DNA of 32,375 nt, from contig NC_057756.1 of NCBI RefSeq assembly GCF_004010195.1, positions 6,468,835 to 6,501,209 on the forward strand. The letters are read 5' to 3'. This DNA is from Chiloscyllium plagiosum. Lineage: Eukaryota. The position numbers and the translations under genes are program-made. The stretch's first letter is position 1. Each line of letters begins with the position of its first letter. Of the stretch, positions 2,611 through 26,899 are shown in pieces. A model generated the notes under the pieces. The model searched no databases. It had not been told where the DNA came from and worked only from the letters and a program-made list of their open reading frames with translations.

Positions 2611-5600
2611 ACAGAGAACACAGAACATGGCCCTTCAGCCCTTAATGTTGCGCTGACCTGTGAAATTAATCTGATGCTCACCAAACCTACACCGTTCCAT
2701 TATTATCCATATTTATGTCCAATGCCCATTTAAACGCCCTTAACATTGACAAGTCTACTACAAAAGGCTATCCCTGATATCTGTCCTAGATCTATCACCC
2801 CTCAGTTTAAAGCTATGGCCCCCGAGTCAGCCTTCACCATCGGAGGACAAAGGCTCTCCCTGCCCACCCTATCTAACCCTCTGATTATCTAATACGTATC
2901 GATTATGTCACCTCTTAACCTTCTTCTCTGCAATCGAAAACAGCCTCAGTTCCCTCAGCCTTTCCTCGTAAAACCTTCCCTCCATACCAGCCAACATTCT
3001 AGCAAATCTCCTCTGACCCCTTTCCAAAGCTTCCACATCCTTCCTATAATGCGGTGACCAGAACTGTACACAATACTCCAAGTGCGGCCGCACCAGTGTC
3101 TTGTACAGCTGAAGCATGACCTCGTGGCTCCAAAACTCAATCCCCCTACAAACACCAACACACCACACACCTTCTTAACAACCCTATCAACCTGGGTGGC
3201 AACCTTCACCTGATATATGCACCTGGATACGAGATCTTTTTGTTCATCTGCACTACCATGAATTTTATCATTACACTGCATTACTGTTACTTCTTCCAAA
3301 GTGAACTACCTCACACTTCTCCACATTAAACTCCATTTGCCCCTTCTCAGCCCAGCTCTGCATCTTATCTATGTCCCTCTGTAATCCACAACATCCTTCG
3401 GCACTATCCACAACTCTGCCTACCTCAGTGTCATCTGCAAATTTACTAATCCAGCCTTCTATGCCCACATCCAGATCATTTATAAAAATTACAAACATCA
3501 GTGGTTCCAAAACAGATCTTTGCAGCATACCACTGGTAACTGAGCTCTAGGATGAACATTTCCAATCAACCACCACCCTCTGTCTTCTTTCAGTGAGCCA
3601 ATTTCTGATCCAAACCACTAACTTACCTTCAATTCCAAAACTCAATATCTTATGCAATAGCCTACCATGTGGAACCTTATCAAATGCCTTCCTGAAGGCC
3701 ATATACACCACATCAACCACTTTATCTTCATCCACCTGTTTTGTTACCTTCTCAAAGAACTCAATAAGGTTAGTGAGGCACAACCTACCCTTCACAAAAC
3801 TGTGCTGACTATCCNNNNNNNNNNNNNNNNNNNNNNNNNNNNNNNNNNNNNNNNNNNNNNNNNNNNNNNNNNNNNNNNNNNNNNNNNNNNNNNNNNNNNN
3901 NNNNNNNNNNNNNNNNNNNNNNNNNNNNNNNNNNNNNNNNNNNNNNNNNNNNNNNNNNNNNNNNNNNNNNNNNNNNNNNNNNNNNNNNNNNNNNNNNNNN
4001 NNNNNNNNNNNNNNNNNNNNNNNNNNNNNNNNNNNNNNNNNNNNNNNNNNNNNNNNNNNNNNNNNNNNNNNNNNNNNNNNNNNNNNNNNNNNNNNNNNNN
4101 NNNNNNNNNNNNNNNNNNNNNNNNNNNNNNNNNNNNNNNNNNNNNNNNNNNNNNNNNNNNNNNNNNNNNNNNNNNNNNNNNNNNNNNNNNNNNNNNNNNN
4201 NNNNNNNNNNNNNNNNNNNNNNNNNNNNNNNNNNNNNNNNNNNNNNNNNNNNNNNNNNNNNNNNNNNNNNNNNNNNNNNNNNNNNNNNNNNNNNNNNNNN
4301 NNNNNNNNNNNNNNNNNNNNNNNNNNNNNNNNNNNNNNNNNNNNNNNNNNNNNNNNNNNNNNNNNNNNNNTCTCTTGACAACTACCTCCCTGCCTGATAG
4401 GTATATATTTATCAAGGACCCGCAGTAGCTATTCCTTGAATAAGGTCCACATTTCAAGAGTGTCCATCCCCTGTAGTTTCCTTCCCCATCCTATGCATCC
4501 TAAATCTGGCCTAACTGCATCATAATTGCCTTTCTCCCAATTATACCTCTTTCCCTGCCCATTGCTATTGCAAACATAACCGAATTGTAGTCACTATTGC
4601 CAAAGTACTCATCTACCTCCCAATCTAACACCTGGCCGGGCTCATTACCCAGTACCAAATCCATTCTGGCCATCGCCCCTCGTTTGCCTGCCTACATACT
4701 GTGTCAGAAAACCCTCCTGCAAACATTGAACAAAAACTGACCCATCTAAACTACTTGAACTACAGTATTCCCAGTAAATATTTGGAAAGTTAAAGTTCCC
4801 CATAACAGCTACTCTGTTACTCTCGCTTCGATCCAGAATCATCTTCGCTATCCTTTCCTCTACATCTCTGGAACTATTCAGAGGCCTATAGAAAACTCCC
4901 ACAGGGTGACCTCTCCTTTCTTATTTCTAACCTCAGCCCAAACTGCCTCAATAGATGAGTCCTCAAACGTTCTCTTAGCTGCTGTAAAACTGCCCTTGAC
5001 CAACAATGCCACACCACCATCTATTTTACCATCTTCTCTGTTCTTACTGAAACATCTAAATCCTGGAACCAGCAGCAACTATTCCTGTCCCTCCTATTGC
5101 CATGTCTCTGAAATGGCCACAACATCGAAATCCCAGGTACCAATCCAAGCTGCAAGTTCACCCACCGGATGCTCCTGGCATTGAAGTACACACATTTCAA
5201 ACCAACTTCCTGATTGCCGGTGTCCTCTTGCAACCTGGTAAACCTATCCCTGACCTCATTACCCTCAACCTCCTGTACACAGGGATAAATTCATATTCCC
5301 AACCCTGGCTGCATGAGTTTAAACCACTCCTCCCCTCAAAGAGCATTAATAAATTCCCTCCCCCCAGGATATTGGTTCAGGTGAAGACTATCCTGTTTTT
5401 AGAGGTCCCACATTCCCCAAAAAGAGCTCCAATTATCCAAGAATCCAAAACCCTCCCTCCTGCACCATTCCTGCAGCCATGTGTTCAGCTCCACTCTCAC
5501 TCTGTTCCTTGCTTCACTAGCACATGGCATGGGCAACAAACCAGAGATAACAACTCTGTTTGTTCTCAGGCTAAGCTTCCACCCAAGTTCCCTGAATTTC

Positions 5601-6350
5601 TGCCTTCGATCCCACCTTTCTTCCTTCGTTGGTGCCGATATGGGCCACAACTTGGGGCTGCTCCCCCTCCCCCTCAAGAATCCCCAAAACACAATCAGAG
5701 ACATCACAAACCCTGACACCTGGGAGGCAACACACCAACTGTGAATCTCTCTCGTTCCCACAAAACATCCTATCTGTTCCCCTAACTATGGAGTCCACAA
5801 TGACTAAAGGTCTGCTCCTCTTCCCCCTTCCCCTCTGAGCAACAGGGACAGACTCTGCGCCAGAGACCTGTGCCCCATTGCTTATCCCTGGTAAGTCCCA
5901 CTTGTTGTTGAGGGGAACCATCACAGGAGATCTGTGAAATGCCTGCCGGTTCCCTTTCCTACCCCTGACGGTAACCCATCCACCTTCTTCACATGGCTGT
6001 GGAGTAACTACCTCCCTGTAACTCCTCTCAATAATCCCCTCTGCCTCTGAATGATCCAAGGTTCATCAAGTTCCAGTTCCAGTTCTCTAACACAGTTCTT
6101 GATGAGCTGGAGTTGGGTGCACTTCCCACAGATGAAGTCAGCAGGGACACTAAGGATGACCCTTACCTCCCACATACTGCAGGAAGAACATTCAACTGCC
6201 ATAACCTCCATTCCCATTATTCTAAATTCCCAAATGGACTGCTGAAAAAATGAAACACAAAAGAAGAAGGAGAATGGGTAGGAGATACGACCTGAGTAGT
6301 GTTTCAGTAAAGCAACCACCCAAATATGTAACCTTGTGACCTCTCTGACT
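2611..6350 (-). mobile_element. Near full-span CR1 LINE (ORF1 zinc finger + esterase, ORF2 endonuclease + RT, 3' UTR), internally deleted and gapped
   Basis: ORF1 ECSSCSMWEVR...CGKCTQLQL and VIVDSIVRGTDRMFCG...VCCLPG...VVAHIGTN; ORF2 LKCVYFNARSI, VFYRP, CLTNLIEFFE...KAFDKVPH, SKFADDT, LYKTLVRPHLEYCVQFWSP. Many frameshifts. Confidence 0.92.
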
Positions 6351-9942: not shown

Positions 9943-9950
9943 CCTCACAC

Positions 9951-10266
9951 TTAGATTAGGTTAGATTACTTACAGTGTGGAAACAGGCCCTTCAGCCCAA
10001 CAAGTCCACACAGACCCTCCAAAGAGCAACTCACCCAGACCCATTCCCCTACATTTACCTAACACTACAGGCAATTTAAGCATGGCCAATTCACCTGACC
10101 TGCACATCTTTGGACTGTGGGAGGAAACCGGAGCACCCGGAAGAAACCCACGCAGACACGGGGAGAATGTGCAAACTCCACAAACACAGTTGCCTGAGAT
10201 GGGAATTGAACCCAGGTCTCTGGCGCTGTGAGGCAGCAGTGCTAATCACTGTGCCACCGTGCCACC
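9951..10266 (-). mobile_element. HE1-type V-SINE (tRNA head, CR1-like tail)
   Basis: Minus-strand head GGTGGCACAGTGATTAGCACTGCTGCCTCACAGCGCCAGAGACCTGGGTTCAATTCCC, V-domain-like GGTTTCTTCCGGGTGCTCCGGTTTCCTCCCACAGTCCAAAGA, (AATCT)n tail. Confidence 0.88.
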
Positions 10267-10384
10267 GATTGCCCGGATTTGCCCGGATTGAACTCCATCT
10301 GCCATTTCTCTACCCAACTCTCCAATCTGTCTATATTCTGCTGTATTCTCTGACAGTCCCCTTCACTATCTGCTACTCCACCGA

Positions 10385-11045
10385 ATCATCAGTAACATGG
10401 AAACTATCCCTAATCCCCCACATCCGACAGGAAGAGCACATCACCTTACTAAAGGTCATCTTTACACCCAGGAAGTAACACAGGACAGACCCAGGAAGTA
10501 ACACAGTCTTGCTGCTTTAAAACCACTGCTCCACCTAACTTCATATCTATGGTTCATATTTTTCAAGTTTAATCAAGAGACAGATTGCCATGAAAACATA
10601 TAATCAAAAACATTCCACTCTACTCACTATTGTAGATCTAGCCACTTGGTTGTTCCCTTTCTATGATCTCTCCACACTGGTTTCTCCAAGGTCAGCTGTG
10701 AATTTCACTGTTTGTTTGCTTTCCTTAGAGGAATGTGAAGCCCGCAGGCTCTTGAAATCAAACAGCAGAGGCATTATCTGTGAAGGTTCACTGCTGGGTC
10801 AGACAGCAGTGAGCTTTCTTTTTTCATAGATTCACTTGCCACCATATAATCGCTGCCTTTGCCTCGCTTCCTTCCTTTTTAATATCCATTGTTTTGACCT
10901 TTGTTTCCCAAAGTTCCAAACCAATGTAGCAGCTTATAAAATTGTAATTACTGCTCCTGGAAGTTGAGGAAATCAGCTCCAAACTGAACATATCTTAAAG
11001 GAGCAGCTCTTCCAGCTACAAGTTTTTTTTCCCATCCTCCATCTC
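10385..11045 (-). mobile_element. CR1 5' UTR and ORF1 start
   Basis: VMCSSCRMWGIRDSFHVTDD at ~10385-10445, homologous to the ORF1 zinc-finger start near 6190; 5' limit approximate. Confidence 0.6.
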
Positions 11046-11540
11046 GTCAACAACATTGCTGTGGCTCAAAGGTCACATTTAGCCCAGACCAGATAAAGAT
11101 GACTGGTTTTCCCAGATTGGTTTTCCCGACAACTGACAATGGTTTCACGGATTCTTAATTTGTTTTCGATTGTGAAGATTTGACATACTGAGGGAGCCTT
11201 TTCTGTGCTGGGGATCCTTGTGACTCTGGCCACAATGATGAATGGACAAATTCACTTCCACATTGGAAGAAAACAAGACAGGCGGAGCAGAGTCCAACAG
11301 GGATCCCACAACAGGCCTAGTACATTCATAAGCATTGTAATATGTACTTTGCAGGCCCCAGAGGAGGCAGGCATTAAAGTAAATCAGAAAACAATTGGCA
11401 CAATGAGACTACCACAACTTGAATATGTGGGACATTGAGTTCATAAGGGAGGAAACTCTCCCCAGGCCATCAAAAACATGCCACAAACAATCACTGGCCA
11501 GGGAAGTGAGGACGCTATTGGGAGAATTTTATTCCTGGAG

Positions 11541-12268
11541 TGGTTCAGGTGAAGACTATCCTGTTTTTAGAGGTCCCACATTCCCCAAAAAGAGCTCCAA
11601 TTATCCAAGAATCCAAAACCCTCCCTCCTGCACCATTCCTGCAGCCATGTGTTCAGCTCCACTCTCACTCTATTCCTTGCTTCACTAGCACATGGCACGG
11701 GCAACAAACCAGAGATAACAACTCTGTTTCTTCTCAGGCTAAGCTTCCACCCAAGTTCCCTGAATTTCTGCCTTCGATCCCATCTTTCTTCCTTCGTTGG
11801 TGCCGATATGGACCACAACTTGGGGCTGCTCCCCCTCCCCCTCAAGAATCCCAAAAACACAATCAGAGACATCACAAACCCTGACACCTGGGGAGGCAAC
11901 TGTGAGTCTCTCTCGTTCCCACAAAACATCCTATCTGTTCCCCTAACTATGGAGTCCACAATGACTAAAGGTCTGCTCCTCTTCCCCCTTCCCCTCTGAA
12001 CAACAGGGACAGACTCTGCACCAGAGACCTGTGCCCCATTGCTTATCCCTGGCAAGTCCCACTTGTTGTTGAGGGGAACCATCACAGGAGATCCGTGAAA
12101 TGCCTGCCGGTTCCCTTTCCTACCCCTGAGGGTAACCCATCCACCTTCTTCACATGGCTGTGGAGTAACCATCTCCCTGTAACTCCTCTCAATAACCCCC
12201 TCTGCCTCTGAATGATCCAAGGTTCATCAAGTTCCAGTTCCAGTTCTCTAACACAGTCCTTGATGAGC
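11541..12268 (-). mobile_element. CR1 ORF1 segment, copy of 5373-6107
   Basis: Near-identical to 5373-6107, including the same apparent internal deletions. Confidence 0.92.
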
Positions 12269-12280
12269 ATCACCTCACAC

Positions 12281-12589
12281 TTAGATTAGGTTAGATTACT
12301 TAGTGTGGAAACAGGCCCTTCAGCCCAACAAGTCCACACAGACCCTCCAAAGAGCAACTCACCCTGACCCATTCCCCTACATTTACCTAACAGGCAATTT
12401 AAGCCTGGCCAATTCACCTGACCTGCACATCTTTAGACTGTGGGAGGAAACCGGAGCACCCAGAAGAAACCCACGCAGACACGGGGAGAATGTGCAAACT
12501 CCACAAACACAGTTGCCCGAGACGGGAATTGAACCCGGGTCTCTGGCGCTGTGAGGCAGCAGTGCTAATCACTGTGCCACCGTGCCACC
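12281..12589 (-). mobile_element. HE1-type V-SINE (duplicate of 9951-10266)
   Basis: Same sequence and flanks as the copy in arm A. Confidence 0.88.
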
Positions 12590-12987
12590 GATTGCCCGGA
12601 TTGAACTCCATCTACCATTTCTCTACCCAACTCTCCAATCTGTCTATATTCTGCTGTATTCTCTGACAGTCCCCTTCACTATCTGCTACTCCACCAAATC
12701 ATCAGTAACATGGAAACTATCCCTAATCCCCCACATCCGACAGGAAGAGCACATCACCCTACTAAAGGTCATCTTTACACCTTAACAATTGACAGACCCA
12801 GGAAGTAACACAGTCTTGCTGCTTTAAAACCACTGCTCCAGCCTAACTTCATATCTATGGTTCATATTTTTCAAGTTTAATCAAGAGACAGATTGCCATG
12901 AAAACATATAATCAAAAACATTCCACTCTACTCACTATTGTAGATCTAGCCACTTGGTTGTTCCCTTTCTATGAACTCTCCACACTG

Positions 12988-13426
12988 ATGTTTTAAAAAA
13001 AATTCTCAAGGTCAAGGACCAGGCTCGCAGGAAAGTAGTCTGACACAGAACAAACAGCCAAGAGGCGAGTCTGCTAGAATATAAGTGTTTTATTCCCCGC
13101 AGCGTCGCCACAACCAGGTCTCGTACTTACAACGGGTCTGGTTTATACTCACTCTACGTGTTACCGGAACTGGGAGCCGTCAGTTCTCGATTTTACACCA
13201 CATTCCACTGCTTGGCCCAATACATGTGTTACATTATGATTCACACATGTGTTGGGACATAATTTTACACCACATTCCACTGCTTGGCCCAATACATGTG
13301 TTACATTATTATTCACACATGTATTGGGACATAATTTTTAACCGTTTCACCACATTCCACTGCTTGGCCCAATACATGTGTTACATTATGATTCACACAT
13401 GTATTGGGACATAATTTTACACCACA
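12988..13426 (-). mobile_element. Solo LTR (ERV or LTR retrotransposon) with 4-bp target-site duplication
   Basis: ACTG at 12984-12987 and 13427-13430, single in the empty site (~10676). Minus strand starts TGTGG and ends AAAACA(T). Order: 72-bp repeats, TATAAA (13142-13147), AATAAA (13089-13094). Confidence 0.8.
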
Positions 13427-14289
13427 ACTGGTTTCTCCAAGGTCAGCTGTGAATTTCACTGTTTGTTTGCTTTCCTTAGAGGAATGTGAAGCCCAGAGGC
13501 ACTTGAAATCAAACAGCAGAGGCATTATCTGTGAAGGTTCACTGCTGGGTCAGACAGCAGTGAGCTTTCTTTTTTCATAGATTCACTTGCCACCATATAA
13601 TCGCTGCCTTTGCCTCGCTTCCTTCCTTTTTAATATCCATTGTTTTGACCTTTGTTTCCCAAAGTTCCAAACCAATGTAGCAGCTTATAAAATTGTAATT
13701 ACTGCTCCTGGAAGTTGAGGAAATCAGCTCCAAACTGAACATATCTTAAAGGAGCAGCTCTTCCAGCTACAAGTTTTTTTTCCCATCCTCCATCTCGTCA
13801 ACAACATTGCTGTGGCTCAAAGGTCACATTTAGCCCAGACCAGATAAGGATGACTGGTTTTCCCGACAACTGACAATGGTTTCACGGATTCTTAATTTGT
13901 TTTCGATTGTGAAGATTTGACATACTGAGGGAGCCTTTTCTGTGCTGGGGATCCTTGTGACTCTGGCCACAATGATGAATGGACAAATTCACTTCCACAT
14001 TGGAAGAAAACAAGACAGGCGGAGCAGAATCCAACAGGGATCCCACAACAGGCCTAGTACATTCATAAGCATTGTAATATGTATTTTGCAGGCCCCAGAG
14101 GAGGCAGGCCTTAAAGTAAATCAGAAAACAATTGGCACAATGAGACTACCACAACTTGAATATGTGGGACATTGAATTCATAAGGGAGGAAACTCTCCCC
14201 AGGCCATCAAAAACATGCCACAAACAATCACTGGCCAGGGAAGTGAGGACGCTATTGGGAGAATTTTATTCCTGGAGATATAGCTCATG

Positions 14290-19694: not shown

Positions 19695-19732
19695 TCATTT
19701 TGGTGCTTCATATTCAGCGACAACTGAGTCAT
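19695..19732 (-). CDS. A2M: A2M-family last coding exon, (D)DSVVAEYEAPK*
   Basis: Phase-1 continuation of ...YDYYHT-G gives DDSVVAEYEAPK-stop, similar to the A2M C-terminus DEFAIAEYNAPC. Strong polypyrimidine tract upstream, but the acceptor reads GG; an in-frame AG lies at 19724-19725. Confidence 0.8.
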
Positions 19733-21376
19733 CCGACAGAAACAAAAGGAAGAGAAGGATTGGTGCGTGGAGGGATAGACAAGGATAAACAGACTGGCAT
19801 CCCCAGTGGACAAACACACTTGGAACAAAATGAAAAGAATAGAAACTGGTGAAGAAAACCAGATTCTCAGGAATCATCACCAGGTTAGAAACAGGAGAAA
19901 TAAAAATCTGAGAATGAACACCAGTGTTCGACGCGGGAAAAATAAAAATACAGAAATCAAACCATGGATTGAAGTAGAAGAAATAAAAGTCCATGAATAA
20001 ACACCAGGATAGAATCAGAGAGAAAGTGAGGACTGCACATGCTGGACATCAAAGTCATAAAATGCTGGAAAAACACAGCAGGTCAGGCAGCAGCCGAGGG
20101 GCCGGAGAGTGTTTCGGATGGTCAGCAAACCTGATGCTTCTGGTCAGTATTGTTTAAACAACTGTTTCAACAAGCAATGAAGCATCTTCAGACAAAATGG
20201 AGCCAAGCAGTATTCAAGGTGAAGCACTTGTTGACAACAAAAAACTGATTAGTCTACAGACGAGTGATCAATTCTGATTGGCAGGTACACATTGCCTGCC
20301 AACAACTATATGACTGGTTCTCAGGCACTAAACAATTTGGGCCTGGTTACAATATCCAGAGAATAGATTTGATCTCCCCAGCTCAAGATCTACCGCTGTA
20401 TTCCCCTGTAGTCAGAACTCTCTTTAAATCTGAAAGTAAACTGGTTCTCTTTCCTGCAGCAGTCACTGTAAACTGTGAATTTTGACAGATAAATCAGAGA
20501 CTTTTTATTGGGGAACCAGTCACGCTATGCCTCGTGCAAGCCAGTGAAAGAATCTGGAGAGGGATGACTGAGAAAATGAGCTTTAACCATCTCATAATAG
20601 ATTGCATTCCCAGTCTTCCTCTGCCAATAACTGACAACATTTCCCTGTCTGTCTTTATACCTACCTATGCAAAAGGATCGGTGTATTAATTAGTCATGTT
20701 AAATGCTAACAGATGATAACTGCTTGACTGCATTCAGGATCTAATCACCTTTTTTAAAAAACAAGTCATTCTTTGTAAATATGCAAACTTGGTGTGTGTT
20801 TTCTGTCAACTTCAGTATAAAAGTTAGGTAGATTGTGGAATGCTGTGTGTGTTTTAAAATCTTTAACTTTAAATGATGACTCCAGTAAAGCTGGGCCTGA
20901 CTTCCAGCATGTCACTCCAGTGAGGGCTGGCAAAAAGACTGCTTTCTGTGGTGATGAATATAAATCTGGGCTGTCTGCTTGGTGCCAGGAATTTGATCAT
21001 CTGCTCAAGGTAGAAGAAGAACCTGGAGTAGGAAGGGGAAGATCCCATTGTAGTGGTCCATGTAGTGACAACATGAAGAGGACTAAGGAAGAGATTCAGC
21101 CCTGGCAATGTGAGGAGCTGGGCATCAAATTAAACAGAACCACAAGGTTAGTGATCTCTGGATTCTTAACTGAACACATGCAAATGACAAAGAATACATA
21201 AGACTATGGAAGTGAAATTTGTGTTCAACAACTGGCTTGGGAGAAATGAGTTGCCATTCATGAGCCAATGATATCAATACCAGAGAATATGGGATTTAAA
21301 CCATTGGGATGATCTGTACCTGAATCATGATGGGACCAATATTCTTGCAAACTACATAATTAAGGAAGTAAATAAT

Positions 21377-24091: not shown

Positions 24092-24197
24092 CAGTATGGT
24101 AGTAATCATAAACTTTCACAATGGCAGGCTGCAGGTTTTCTACACTGAACTGATGGATGGTGTCAATGGATAATTGTAGCAGACTGTTCACTTCCAT
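24092..24197 (-). CDS. A2M: Alpha-2-macroglobulin-family gene, internal exon of receptor-binding (MG8) domain
   Basis: 106-nt exon: acceptor tctctctctccag, donor G|gtaagc, phase 0 to 1. Translates MEVNSLLQLSIDTIHQFSVENLQPAIVKVYDYYHT, matching the A2M-family motif L(K/Q)PA(I/V)VKVYDYY. Paralogue (A2M, A2ML1, ovostatin-like) not resolved. Confidence 0.93.
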
Positions 24198-24319
24198 CTG
24201 GAGAGAGAGATGAGATCAGGCCACTCACCACTAAAACAGTATTGTCACTGCAGAAGAAATGTCAGCTTCCAGATCTTAGACTTTCATCTCTGTTTCACTG
24301 TCTCTGTTTTTCACACAAC

Positions 24320-24813
24320 TCCTTCCACCCTCCCCTTCCCTATCTCTCCCTCTTATTCTCATTCTCTCTTTTATTATCTAATGTTGCTTCTCTTCCCTTC
24401 TGCCACCTCCCCTCTCTCTTGCTTTCTCTCATCTTATCTACTTTTGCTTCTCTTTCCTTACTCCACTCTCCCTTACCCCACTCTACAATCCTCTTCCTTT
24501 TATTCCTCTGCTGTCTAATCCTGCTTCTCTCCCCCCCACTCACTCTCTCTGCCCCACACTCTCTCTCTTCCTTTTATTCCTCTGCTGTCTAATCCTGCTT
24601 CTCTCCCTTCCCCTCTCTCTATTTCTCCAACCCTCCCTTTCTCTCTCAATCCCCGCCTCTCTCTCTGCACCAGCTCTATACATTTCTGTGACTTGTCTCT
24701 CTGCCTCGCTCAGTCACTGATATGTCCCTTTCCATCCCTCCTACACAGTCTCCCTTTCCTCCAGTTGTCCCTCTCACCTCTTCCACTCCTGCTTTCCTTC
24801 CCTCACCCACTCA

Positions 24814-24851
<38 letters not shown>

Positions 24852-24864
24852 CCCCACCCCTCCT
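24320..24864. repeat. CT-rich low-complexity intronic tract with (CT)n and an internal ~42-bp duplication
   Basis: TCTTCCTTTTATTCCTCTGCTGTCTAATCCTGCTTCTCTCCC at ~24492 and ~24566. Confidence 0.8.
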
Positions 24865-24891
24865 CCCCTCTCAGCATCACCCAGTGCTCAC

Positions 24892-24960
24892 TGGATCAAG
24901 GTACAGAAACAGGTGCCCATCTTGCAGTTCAACTTTTTTTATTTTGAAACTGTCCACACT
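24892..24960 (-). CDS. A2M: A2M-family exon (69 nt, phase 0/0), native copy
   Basis: Acceptor cattcatttcag, donor gtgagc. Translates SVDSFKIKKVELQDGHLFLYLDP, equivalent to human A2M LERSNHVSRTEVSSNHVLIYLDK (23 aa). Splices in frame to 24197 over a 694-nt intron. Confidence 0.9.
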
Positions 24961-25280
24961 CTGAAATGAATGACCGTAATTGAAAAACATTATTAATTAC
25001 AACAATGAATATTAATGAACCATTAACTACTAACCATTAACCAATGCTCGTATTGATAGAACAGAACTGGATACATAATAGCCCGCATTATAAAACTTTC
25101 AGTAATAGCCCGGTGGGTAGAAAGGAATTATGTGTGGCAGTCTTGGTCAAAGATGATATCATTGTCTTTGAATGGGATATAGTTCTTGAAATAGAATCCT
25201 TATAGAGTCAAAGAGATATACAACACGGAAACAGATTCTTTGGTCCAAATCAACTGTGTCAGCCAGATAGCCTAAATTAA

Positions 25281-26090
25281 CCCATGGGATCACCAATCTC
25301 GGGACTCATAGCAGAGGCAGTTATGCAAAGGTTAGAACAAACAGTCCTACCACAAATTCAACCCAAACTCTGGGTCAGATATGTCGATGACACCTTTGTA
25401 ATCATTAAAAACACGGAAATAGAAAAAACACAGGATCATCAACGCCACACTCACAGGAATCCGATTCACGAGAGAAGAAGAAAAGGACAACCAACTCCCA
25501 TTCCTAGACGTGATGGTACAGAGAACACCAAACGGAGAATTCACTACAAGGGTATACAGGAAAGCCACACACACAGACCAAGTCCTAAACTATGAAAGTA
25601 ACCACCCCAACACACACAAACGAAGCTGCATGAGGACACTATTCAAAAGGGCTACAACACACTGCAGTACACCAGAACTGCAAAAAGAAGAAGAGGAACA
25701 CCTATACAAGGTATTCACCATCAACAGATGCCTAAGAGAAAGACCCCTCTCAGCATCACCCAGTGCTCACTGGATCAAGGTACAGAAACAGGTGCCCATC
25801 TTGCAGTTCAACTTTTTTTATTTTGAAACTGTCCACACTCTGAAATGATTGACAGTAATTGAAAAACATTATTAATTACAACAATGAATATTAATGAAAC
25901 ATTAACTACTAACCATTAACCAATGCTTGTATTGATAGAACAGAACTGGAAACATAATAGCCCGCATTATAAAACCTTCACTAATAGCCCGGTGGGTAGA
26001 AAGGAATTATGTGTGGTGATGATGTCGCCTAGCCAGGGGACGAAACGTTTGCAACAAAAACTTCCAGCTCGGCGAACAGAACCACAACAA
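25281..26090 (+). mobile_element. 5'-truncated Penelope-like element (RT fragment + captured host DNA + 3' terminus)
   Basis: PMGSPISGLIAEAVMQRLE...WVRYVDDTF; LPFLDV...VYRKATHTDQVLNYESNHP; terminal TGATGA...GAAACG at 26017-26050. Confidence 0.9.
25771..25839 (-). CDS. Duplicate copy of the 69-nt A2M-family exon inside a Penelope-like element
   Basis: Identical to 24892-24960 (offset 879), acceptor caatcatttcag, donor gtgagc. Whether it is spliced is unknown. Confidence 0.5.
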
Positions 26091-26899
26091 TCTAGTCCCA
26101 TCTGCCAGCACTTGGCCCATACCCTTTCCTGTTCATATACCCATCCAGATGCCTTTTAGATGTCGTAATTGTACCAGCCTCCACCACTTCCTCTGGCAGC
26201 TCATTCCACATACACACCACCCTCTGCGTGAAACATCTGTCCCTTCAGTCCCTTTTAAATCTTTCCCCTCTCATCCTAGATCTATGCCCTCTAATTCTGA
26301 ATTCCCCCACCCCAGTGAAAAGACCTATTTTCTTACATCATCCTTGCTTCATTTGCACATCACAGTAAATCTTGTTTTTGTTCCTTTCTTCTCCATTCCA
26401 TTCAAGATTTTGAAAATCTCTGTCCGTTCTCCTCTCCAACTTCTGTCTTGGGAGAACTGTCGCAACATCTCTAATATTTCCTCAAAACTGAAAGTTCTTA
26501 TTCCTGGAAGCGTTCTGTAAATCGCTTCTGCACTTTCTCCAATGCATTCACATTGCCCCTATGATATGTGCCTACAACTGTACACACCACTCCAGCTGAG
26601 GTCTAACAAGTATCTTGCACAGATTCAACATCATCTCCCTATGCTTAAACTTGCTGCGACAAACTAGAACAATTCATTGTACCATGAAAGATCAAAGACA
26701 GAAAAATAATGGCCATAAGACGTGGGAATGTCAAACTCCTGAACATCTGAAAAGGAGTAAGAGAAAGAGAGAGAACGATAGAGCAAAAAAAAATCCACAG
26801 ACAAATAGAATAAAAATGGAGCACAGGTTATGGATCTTAAATCCTTGATCTAATTTAGTCTGGGAAGTTGAAAAGTACTGAGTTGGGAGATGAGCTGTC

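Follow-up and report, generated by a model that had tools for sequence, protein, structure and literature searches.

Repair-mediated duplications are known in which a single-copy segment from less than 5 kb away, at most 619 bp long, has been inserted into an interrupted transposable element, with microhomology and a deletion at the site and no polyA. In the part of the report drawn on here, such duplications sometimes contain whole exons, one case is polymorphic, the tabulated deletions span 1–15 nt, and for the whole-exon cases ACSBG2 exon 7 and C17orf57 exon 20 evidence of coding constraint is given in neither (PMC2671141). Genome assemblies produce a lookalike, the heterotype false duplication, in which two copies share a scaffold, differ as alleles do, lie in a region that is heterozygous and fragmented, and yield an apparent extra exon; false duplications, in the passages of the survey used here, favour heterozygous regions, create false exon gains and are mostly separated by an assembly gap (PMC9516828). 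A further precedent comes from rotifers, whose Penelope elements capture host DNA: in the sections on Adineta vaga, intron-containing host DNA lies in a Penelope structure upstream of its 3′ terminal part, as a spacer before the terminal repeat or as a gene moved elsewhere (PMC3846280). A literature search for shark macroglobulin exon duplication with Penelope found no paper on the locus analysed here.

The window, that is, the whole stretch of 32,375 nucleotides of Chiloscyllium plagiosum DNA that was analysed, was compared with itself. The segment at 24865–25137 (copy 1, the donor in its native intron context) is present again at 25744–26016 (copy 2): 273 bp, gap-free and in the same orientation, with 7 substitutions (97.4% identity) and a spacing of 879 bp. 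An assembly-wide search (G000) with the 273-bp segment returned two matches, both of them the copies in the window. Each copy holds a 69-nt minus-strand exon of phase 0/0 (SVDSFKIKKVELQDGHLFLYLDP) with intact splice sites (CAG before the exon, GTGAG after it), at 24892–24960 and 25771–25839, respectively; the exon is seen in spliced contigs of two public runs (X9 and X14), and its second copy, identical by sequence comparison, keeps only 27 nt of native intron after its donor site. This recurrence of a whole exon with both splice sites, and the 0/0 phase, had been pointed out in a preliminary description of the window, and both are found in the assembly. The same description called the copies identical, which is true of the exon and the donor side, to which full identity is limited, and untrue of the intron, where all seven differences fall (24970, 24975, 25020, 25049, 25072, 25097 and 25102 in copy-1 coordinates). 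The first and last of them lie 105 and 35 bp from the copy ends. Behind copy 1, the non-duplicated intron runs on at 25138–25200, and this continuation is seen in all contigs crossing the end of the segment. The duplication is confirmed as assembly text; for a chromosome, it is not confirmed.

Copy 2 sits inside a Penelope-type element that itself interrupts an older repeat. The left part of that repeat tail, which we take to be a CR1/SINE-type 3′ end, occupies 25201–25280 (plus strand) and its right part 26091–26324 (plus strand), both placed by paired-copy comparison; in 21 of 23 paired copies no base separates the equivalents of 25280 and 26091, with no target deletion and a duplication (AA) of at most 1–2 bp. 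The element consists of a 5′-truncated Penelope-type reverse transcriptase (RT) fragment at 25281–25745 (plus strand; family alignment, and an RVT_1 match with E 1e-5, below the curated cut-off) and the element's 3′ end at 26017–26090 (plus strand; family alignment). Comparisons with the family rest on the best 40 scored of the 2217 candidates found at first look, from which 29 other loci were fetched. The RT fragment diverges by 1.36% from the family majority (6 of ~440) and carries a private 24-bp deletion near 25722, ~20 bp before the first junction with copy 2, that was found once in G000. Within those best 40 of 2217, copies with the left anchor continue with CC in 25 of 26 instances, and an inter-junction stretch of 563–577 bp is present in 9 of the 22 copies that have both anchors. 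It encodes a linker and the motif VVYKIPC...HYIGQTG, presumably that of a GIY-YIG endonuclease. The alignment to the family, which had been proposed as the way to fix the breakpoints, places 2 bp of microhomology (CC, 25744–25745) at junction 1 and leaves junction 2 blunt; polyA is absent. The position of copy 2 between RT and 3′ terminus, in place of the endonuclease-like stretch, agrees with the preliminary description, as does the clean split of the host repeat. For its label GIY-YIG, a Pfam profile search of a family copy with the endonuclease-like stretch gave no match. An Rfam search returned nothing at an E-value limit of 1.

The duplicated exon belongs to a gene whose neighbouring exons lie at 36500–36590 (outside the window), at 24092–24197 and near 19730, and which together with it encode the receptor-binding domain of an A2M/PZP-like protein (PF07677, E 3e-23; top PDB matches are A2M). 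The next exon of the gene (24092–24197, minus strand, MEVNS...YYHT) is tied to it by the joint 24198–25772 in X9 and X14. Compared with the known A2M/PZP domain (PF07677; PDB 1bv8, 1ayo, 6tav), the shark sequence agrees in domain, exon size and position, and keeps K1393 as K, but has R at K1397. Human K1393 and K1397 are given as LRP1-binding lysines in the part of the source used here (10.1101/2022.05.10.491262). Shark K16 and R20 align to them, and the exon starts at residue 22, two past R20. Both the assignment to the A2M family and the placement of the exon just after the lysine-bearing helix, as first proposed, stand. The names A2M and PZP vary among sources: the public 91-aa protein P0002 from Chiloscyllium plagiosum bears the source name ‘pregnancy zone protein-like', and its relatives are named A2M-like or PZP-like. 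P0002, the single member of its cluster, contains one copy of the exon, whichever of its two isoform names is used. Five relatives were returned, four with the exon once and one in which it is skipped. P0006, an annotated isoform of a related shark, is without the same 23-aa exon. The predicted structure of this domain (91 aa; mean pLDDT 49), with a helix at 16–22 and two strands in the exon, is too weak for use.

Elsewhere in the gene, the acceptor of the last coding exon reads GG, not AG, in the assembly (19733–19734), and a stop follows APK in this exon where relatives go on with RLEIEV; either base errors or rare variants would account for both. At 24145, all four runs compared have T, which gives Asn as in related sharks, where the assembly codes Ser. 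Contigs of X1 and X9 leave out a 74-bp unit in a pyrimidine tract (24491–24564, 43 bp of it repeated).

Six of 24 public runs were compared (X1, X4, X5, X9, X14 and X21), five of them as contigs that show presence only and that are simplified assemblies according to the portion of their description used here (10.1101/2024.07.30.605881). X21 was read as raw reads, of which ~2/100 of the run was sampled and 0 were placed; X9 and X14 were treated as RNA solely on their spliced joints. Where unique DNA meets a high-copy repeat, the assembler can discard short connecting links. None of the pieces listed crosses either junction of copy 2 or the private 24-bp deletion, and contigs cannot show absence.

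In X1, an unbroken 370-bp contig covers 24874–25231 with all seven copy-1 letters and 0 differences. Its depth, 12.9 within the segment and 13.8 in flanking sequence, fits one copy, though depth is no copy number; a faint copy-2 signal (0.7–1.4) appeared in one comparison and was absent on repeat. Another X1 contig (25219–25302, 0 differences) spans the 5′ junction of the element, a pattern that G000 contains once; only 22 of its letters fall on the element side, which is under the 31-letter bar and makes this a weak anchor. Because X1 has this junction together with copy-1 letters only, the element apparently exists without copy 2, which suggests that the Penelope insertion itself is real and earlier than the copy.

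Copy-2 letters are present in X4, X5 and X9, and X9 contigs match copy 2 with 0 differences over 25810–26016. In X14, a contig covering 24931–25241 has the copy-2 letters at 24970, 24975, 25097 and 25102 and extends to 25241 in ordinary intron, and in X9 a contig covering 25073–25217 has those at 25097 and 25102 and likewise continues past the segment into ordinary intron. Since these contigs reach ordinary intron, at least four of the seven copy differences are allelic at the real locus, where allelic divergence is ~2% (7 in 311). The remaining three, the copy-2 private letters 25899, 25928 and 25951, are carried into ordinary intron by no single contig; they stand on separate contigs that merge before it. 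Over 25869–25981, X9 has two arms (depth 13.0 and 13.8), one identical to copy 2 and the other differing from it at three places, and both lead into one contig running on to ordinary intron; this is the pattern of a heterozygote. X4 has three letter sets and X5 apparently three too, judging by a contig that ends at 25096. So many in a single sample require a pool or a second locus. Sequence past 25137 is continued by contigs in X1, X5, X9 and X14, and the loose end CAGTC... lies behind 26016 in X1, X4 and X9; in these three runs, ordinary intron is the only sequence found behind 26016 among the pieces listed.

Our leading explanation, to which we give a probability of about 0.5, is that the second exon copy arose when the assembly falsely duplicated an allele. 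The assembled animal would be heterozygous for the exon region, and the full copy-2 letter set would be an allele of a single exon locus. The assembly would have set this second allele into the adjacent Penelope remnant, in a part that it had failed to resolve, and the two junctions would then be products of software. The surroundings resemble those of heterotype false duplications: divergence between alleles is ~2%, the 232 kb around the gene contain 14 gaps and only its last four exons, and five nearby duplicates are present. Nothing in these 232 kb matches residues 1–1357 of a relative's protein, and C47, which carries the window, gave no match to the A2M middle domain (PF00207). Unlike typical cases of that class, as far as the excerpted survey describes them, there is no assembly gap between the copies (the nearest N to them is 6,359 bp away), and the evidence consists of contigs from other samples (PMC9516828).

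Several observations speak against a false duplication. The junctions and the nearby private 24-bp deletion look like repair, and no software step is named that would have made them. The copy ends are asymmetric about the outer differences (105 and 35 bp), which is unlike a simple bubble arm. The three letter sets of X4, and perhaps X5, need pooled samples if the locus is single. Finally, a 90.5% identical inverted copy in a block of C1 is an example of older local copies inside repeats.

The five duplicates are direct non-tandem pairs of at least 200 bp whose members share at least 94% identity and lie within 8 kb of each other; they fall between the window start and 41687, a stretch with 36,815 called bases. 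With the same criteria, 574,550 bases from 12 blocks elsewhere contained 0 direct pairs and one inverted pair. The ~37-kb stretch was delimited after the data had been seen, and some of its pairs are repeat-derived. Substitution divergence within the local pairs is 0.9–2.6%, a range like that of alleles here. This excess shows a regional cause, either stacked haplotypes or a duplication hotspot, and is no proof of error. If the second exon copy is an assembly error, local ‘captures' at 97–99% identity in this genome, above all those in the fragmented C47 stretch, need read support before being taken for Penelope biology.

The main competitor, quite possible though short of even odds, is a repair duplication that followed the insertion of the element and was not fixed: a break in the old Penelope copy would have been patched from DNA 0.6–0.9 kb away, with the loss of ~570 bp. 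A direct copy of 273 bp whose source is local, 879 bp away, and which stands in an interrupted repeat with 2 bp of microhomology, a deletion and no polyA, fits what such repair leaves behind; the single donor lies within 5 kb and the copy falls in the range of 50–619 bp, in line with the class as far as the report was drawn on (PMC2671141). There is no gap near the site, X1 suggests that the element preceded the copy, and two alleles together with a duplicate would give the three letter sets of X4 and, apparently, X5. The assembled sequence departs from the runs in other places as well (24145 in four of four runs, 24491–24564 in X1 and X9). Against this, the deletion far exceeds those of the published table: 563–577 bp, gauged by nine of 22 family copies, compared with 1–15 nt there. 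In X9, copy-2 letters stand at a depth equal to that of the other arm, with the exon spliced singly and both arms leading into ordinary intron, and the five nearby duplicates share a common, allele-level divergence. The preliminary description had recommended a search for captures in other Penelope copies; in this family, none of the 29 other loci (from the best 40 of 2217) carries a non-repeat local copy of at least 50 bp, and none of the nine other local copies checked lies inside the same Penelope family.

Two versions of the repair duplication differ in how common the copy would be. That it is recent and rare, copied from an allele still segregating, seems doubtful; that it is a common polymorphism, the full copy-2 letter set being the duplicate itself, is harder still to credit. 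A false duplication and a repair duplication predict nearly the same public data. If real, the locus would be one more repair-mediated duplication, of the class described in 2009. Apart from its ~570-bp deletion, it would differ from the cases in the consulted part of that report in its host-gene orientation and intact splice sites, and in being known from an assembly only (PMC2671141); it would be notable only for carrying a complete in-frame exon, its two splice sites included, in sense orientation and not fixed. The preliminary description had offered later repair as its alternative and misassembly as what would undo the event; both are live readings, at the respective strengths given above, and an event at insertion is disfavoured.

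It had favoured one insertion with a template switch. In detail, the RT would have begun with 74 nt of the element, switched to the host plus strand at a point 143 bp upstream of the target, taken 273 nt from there and returned to the element RNA at CC. With copy 2 then expected to accompany the element on every chromosome, and X1 combining the 5′ junction (22 element letters, weak) with an unbroken contig of copy-1 letters only, we regard this as very unlikely. In its favour, the host repeat is split cleanly and the target has lost no bases, and rotifer Penelope elements capture host DNA in the sections cited (PMC3846280). The seven differences compare with 7.4 expected if the copy is as old as the element, but at least four of the seven are allelic and cannot date it. 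Dating does not decide the matter, because seven differences fit the age of the element (P 0.53) and three fit it poorly (P 0.06). The polarity of the host pre-mRNA would be wrong for a sense RNA template, an antisense template being left open in the parts of the rotifer study used here (PMC3846280). Like the Adineta vaga structures, the shark sequence has intron-containing host DNA upstream of the 3′ terminal part of a Penelope element; it differs in that the host DNA replaces the endonuclease region, has its donor close by and seemingly came later than the insertion.

The spliced contigs bear on a longer protein. In them the exon is followed immediately by the next one at a depth of 1212 (X9) and 242 (X14), and preceded by the previous one at 678 (X9). 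Tandem inclusion through 25771-to-24960 joints, which the preliminary description had raised, finds no counterpart there: a single exon is seen in the spliced contigs of X9 and X14, the public 91-aa protein has one copy, and no copy-to-copy joint is among the joints listed for these two runs, in which minor forms can drop out and whose animals may lack the copy. That the copy is real and segregating, and that carriers splice in both copies to make a longer A2M-family isoform, has in our judgement only a very slim chance. If true, a repair patch in a dead Penelope element would have made a polymorphic isoform with a second strand pair in the receptor-binding domain, right after the helix with the LRP1-binding basic residues, and exon duplication would have been caught before fixation. 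The locus would be relevant to protein evolution only if this double inclusion held.

Other rearranged stretches were encountered in the assembly. Within the window at 9943–14277, the segments 9943–11540 and 12273–14277 recur in order at 0.9–2.2% divergence; between them stands a 730-bp copy of 5373–6107, with a 4-bp filler at one join. Either stacked haplotypes or a complex duplication would explain this arrangement. Some 42–78 kb from the window start on C47, upstream of the gene's last four exons, an 11.5-kb unit is present three times with 3–5% divergence; no exons of the A2M/PZP-like gene were found in it. In a 50-kb block of C1, positions 45837–45952 repeat, in inverted orientation, 116 bp of DNA from 2.4 kb off, at 90.5% identity and with repeats on both sides; this copy is probably an old, real local capture.
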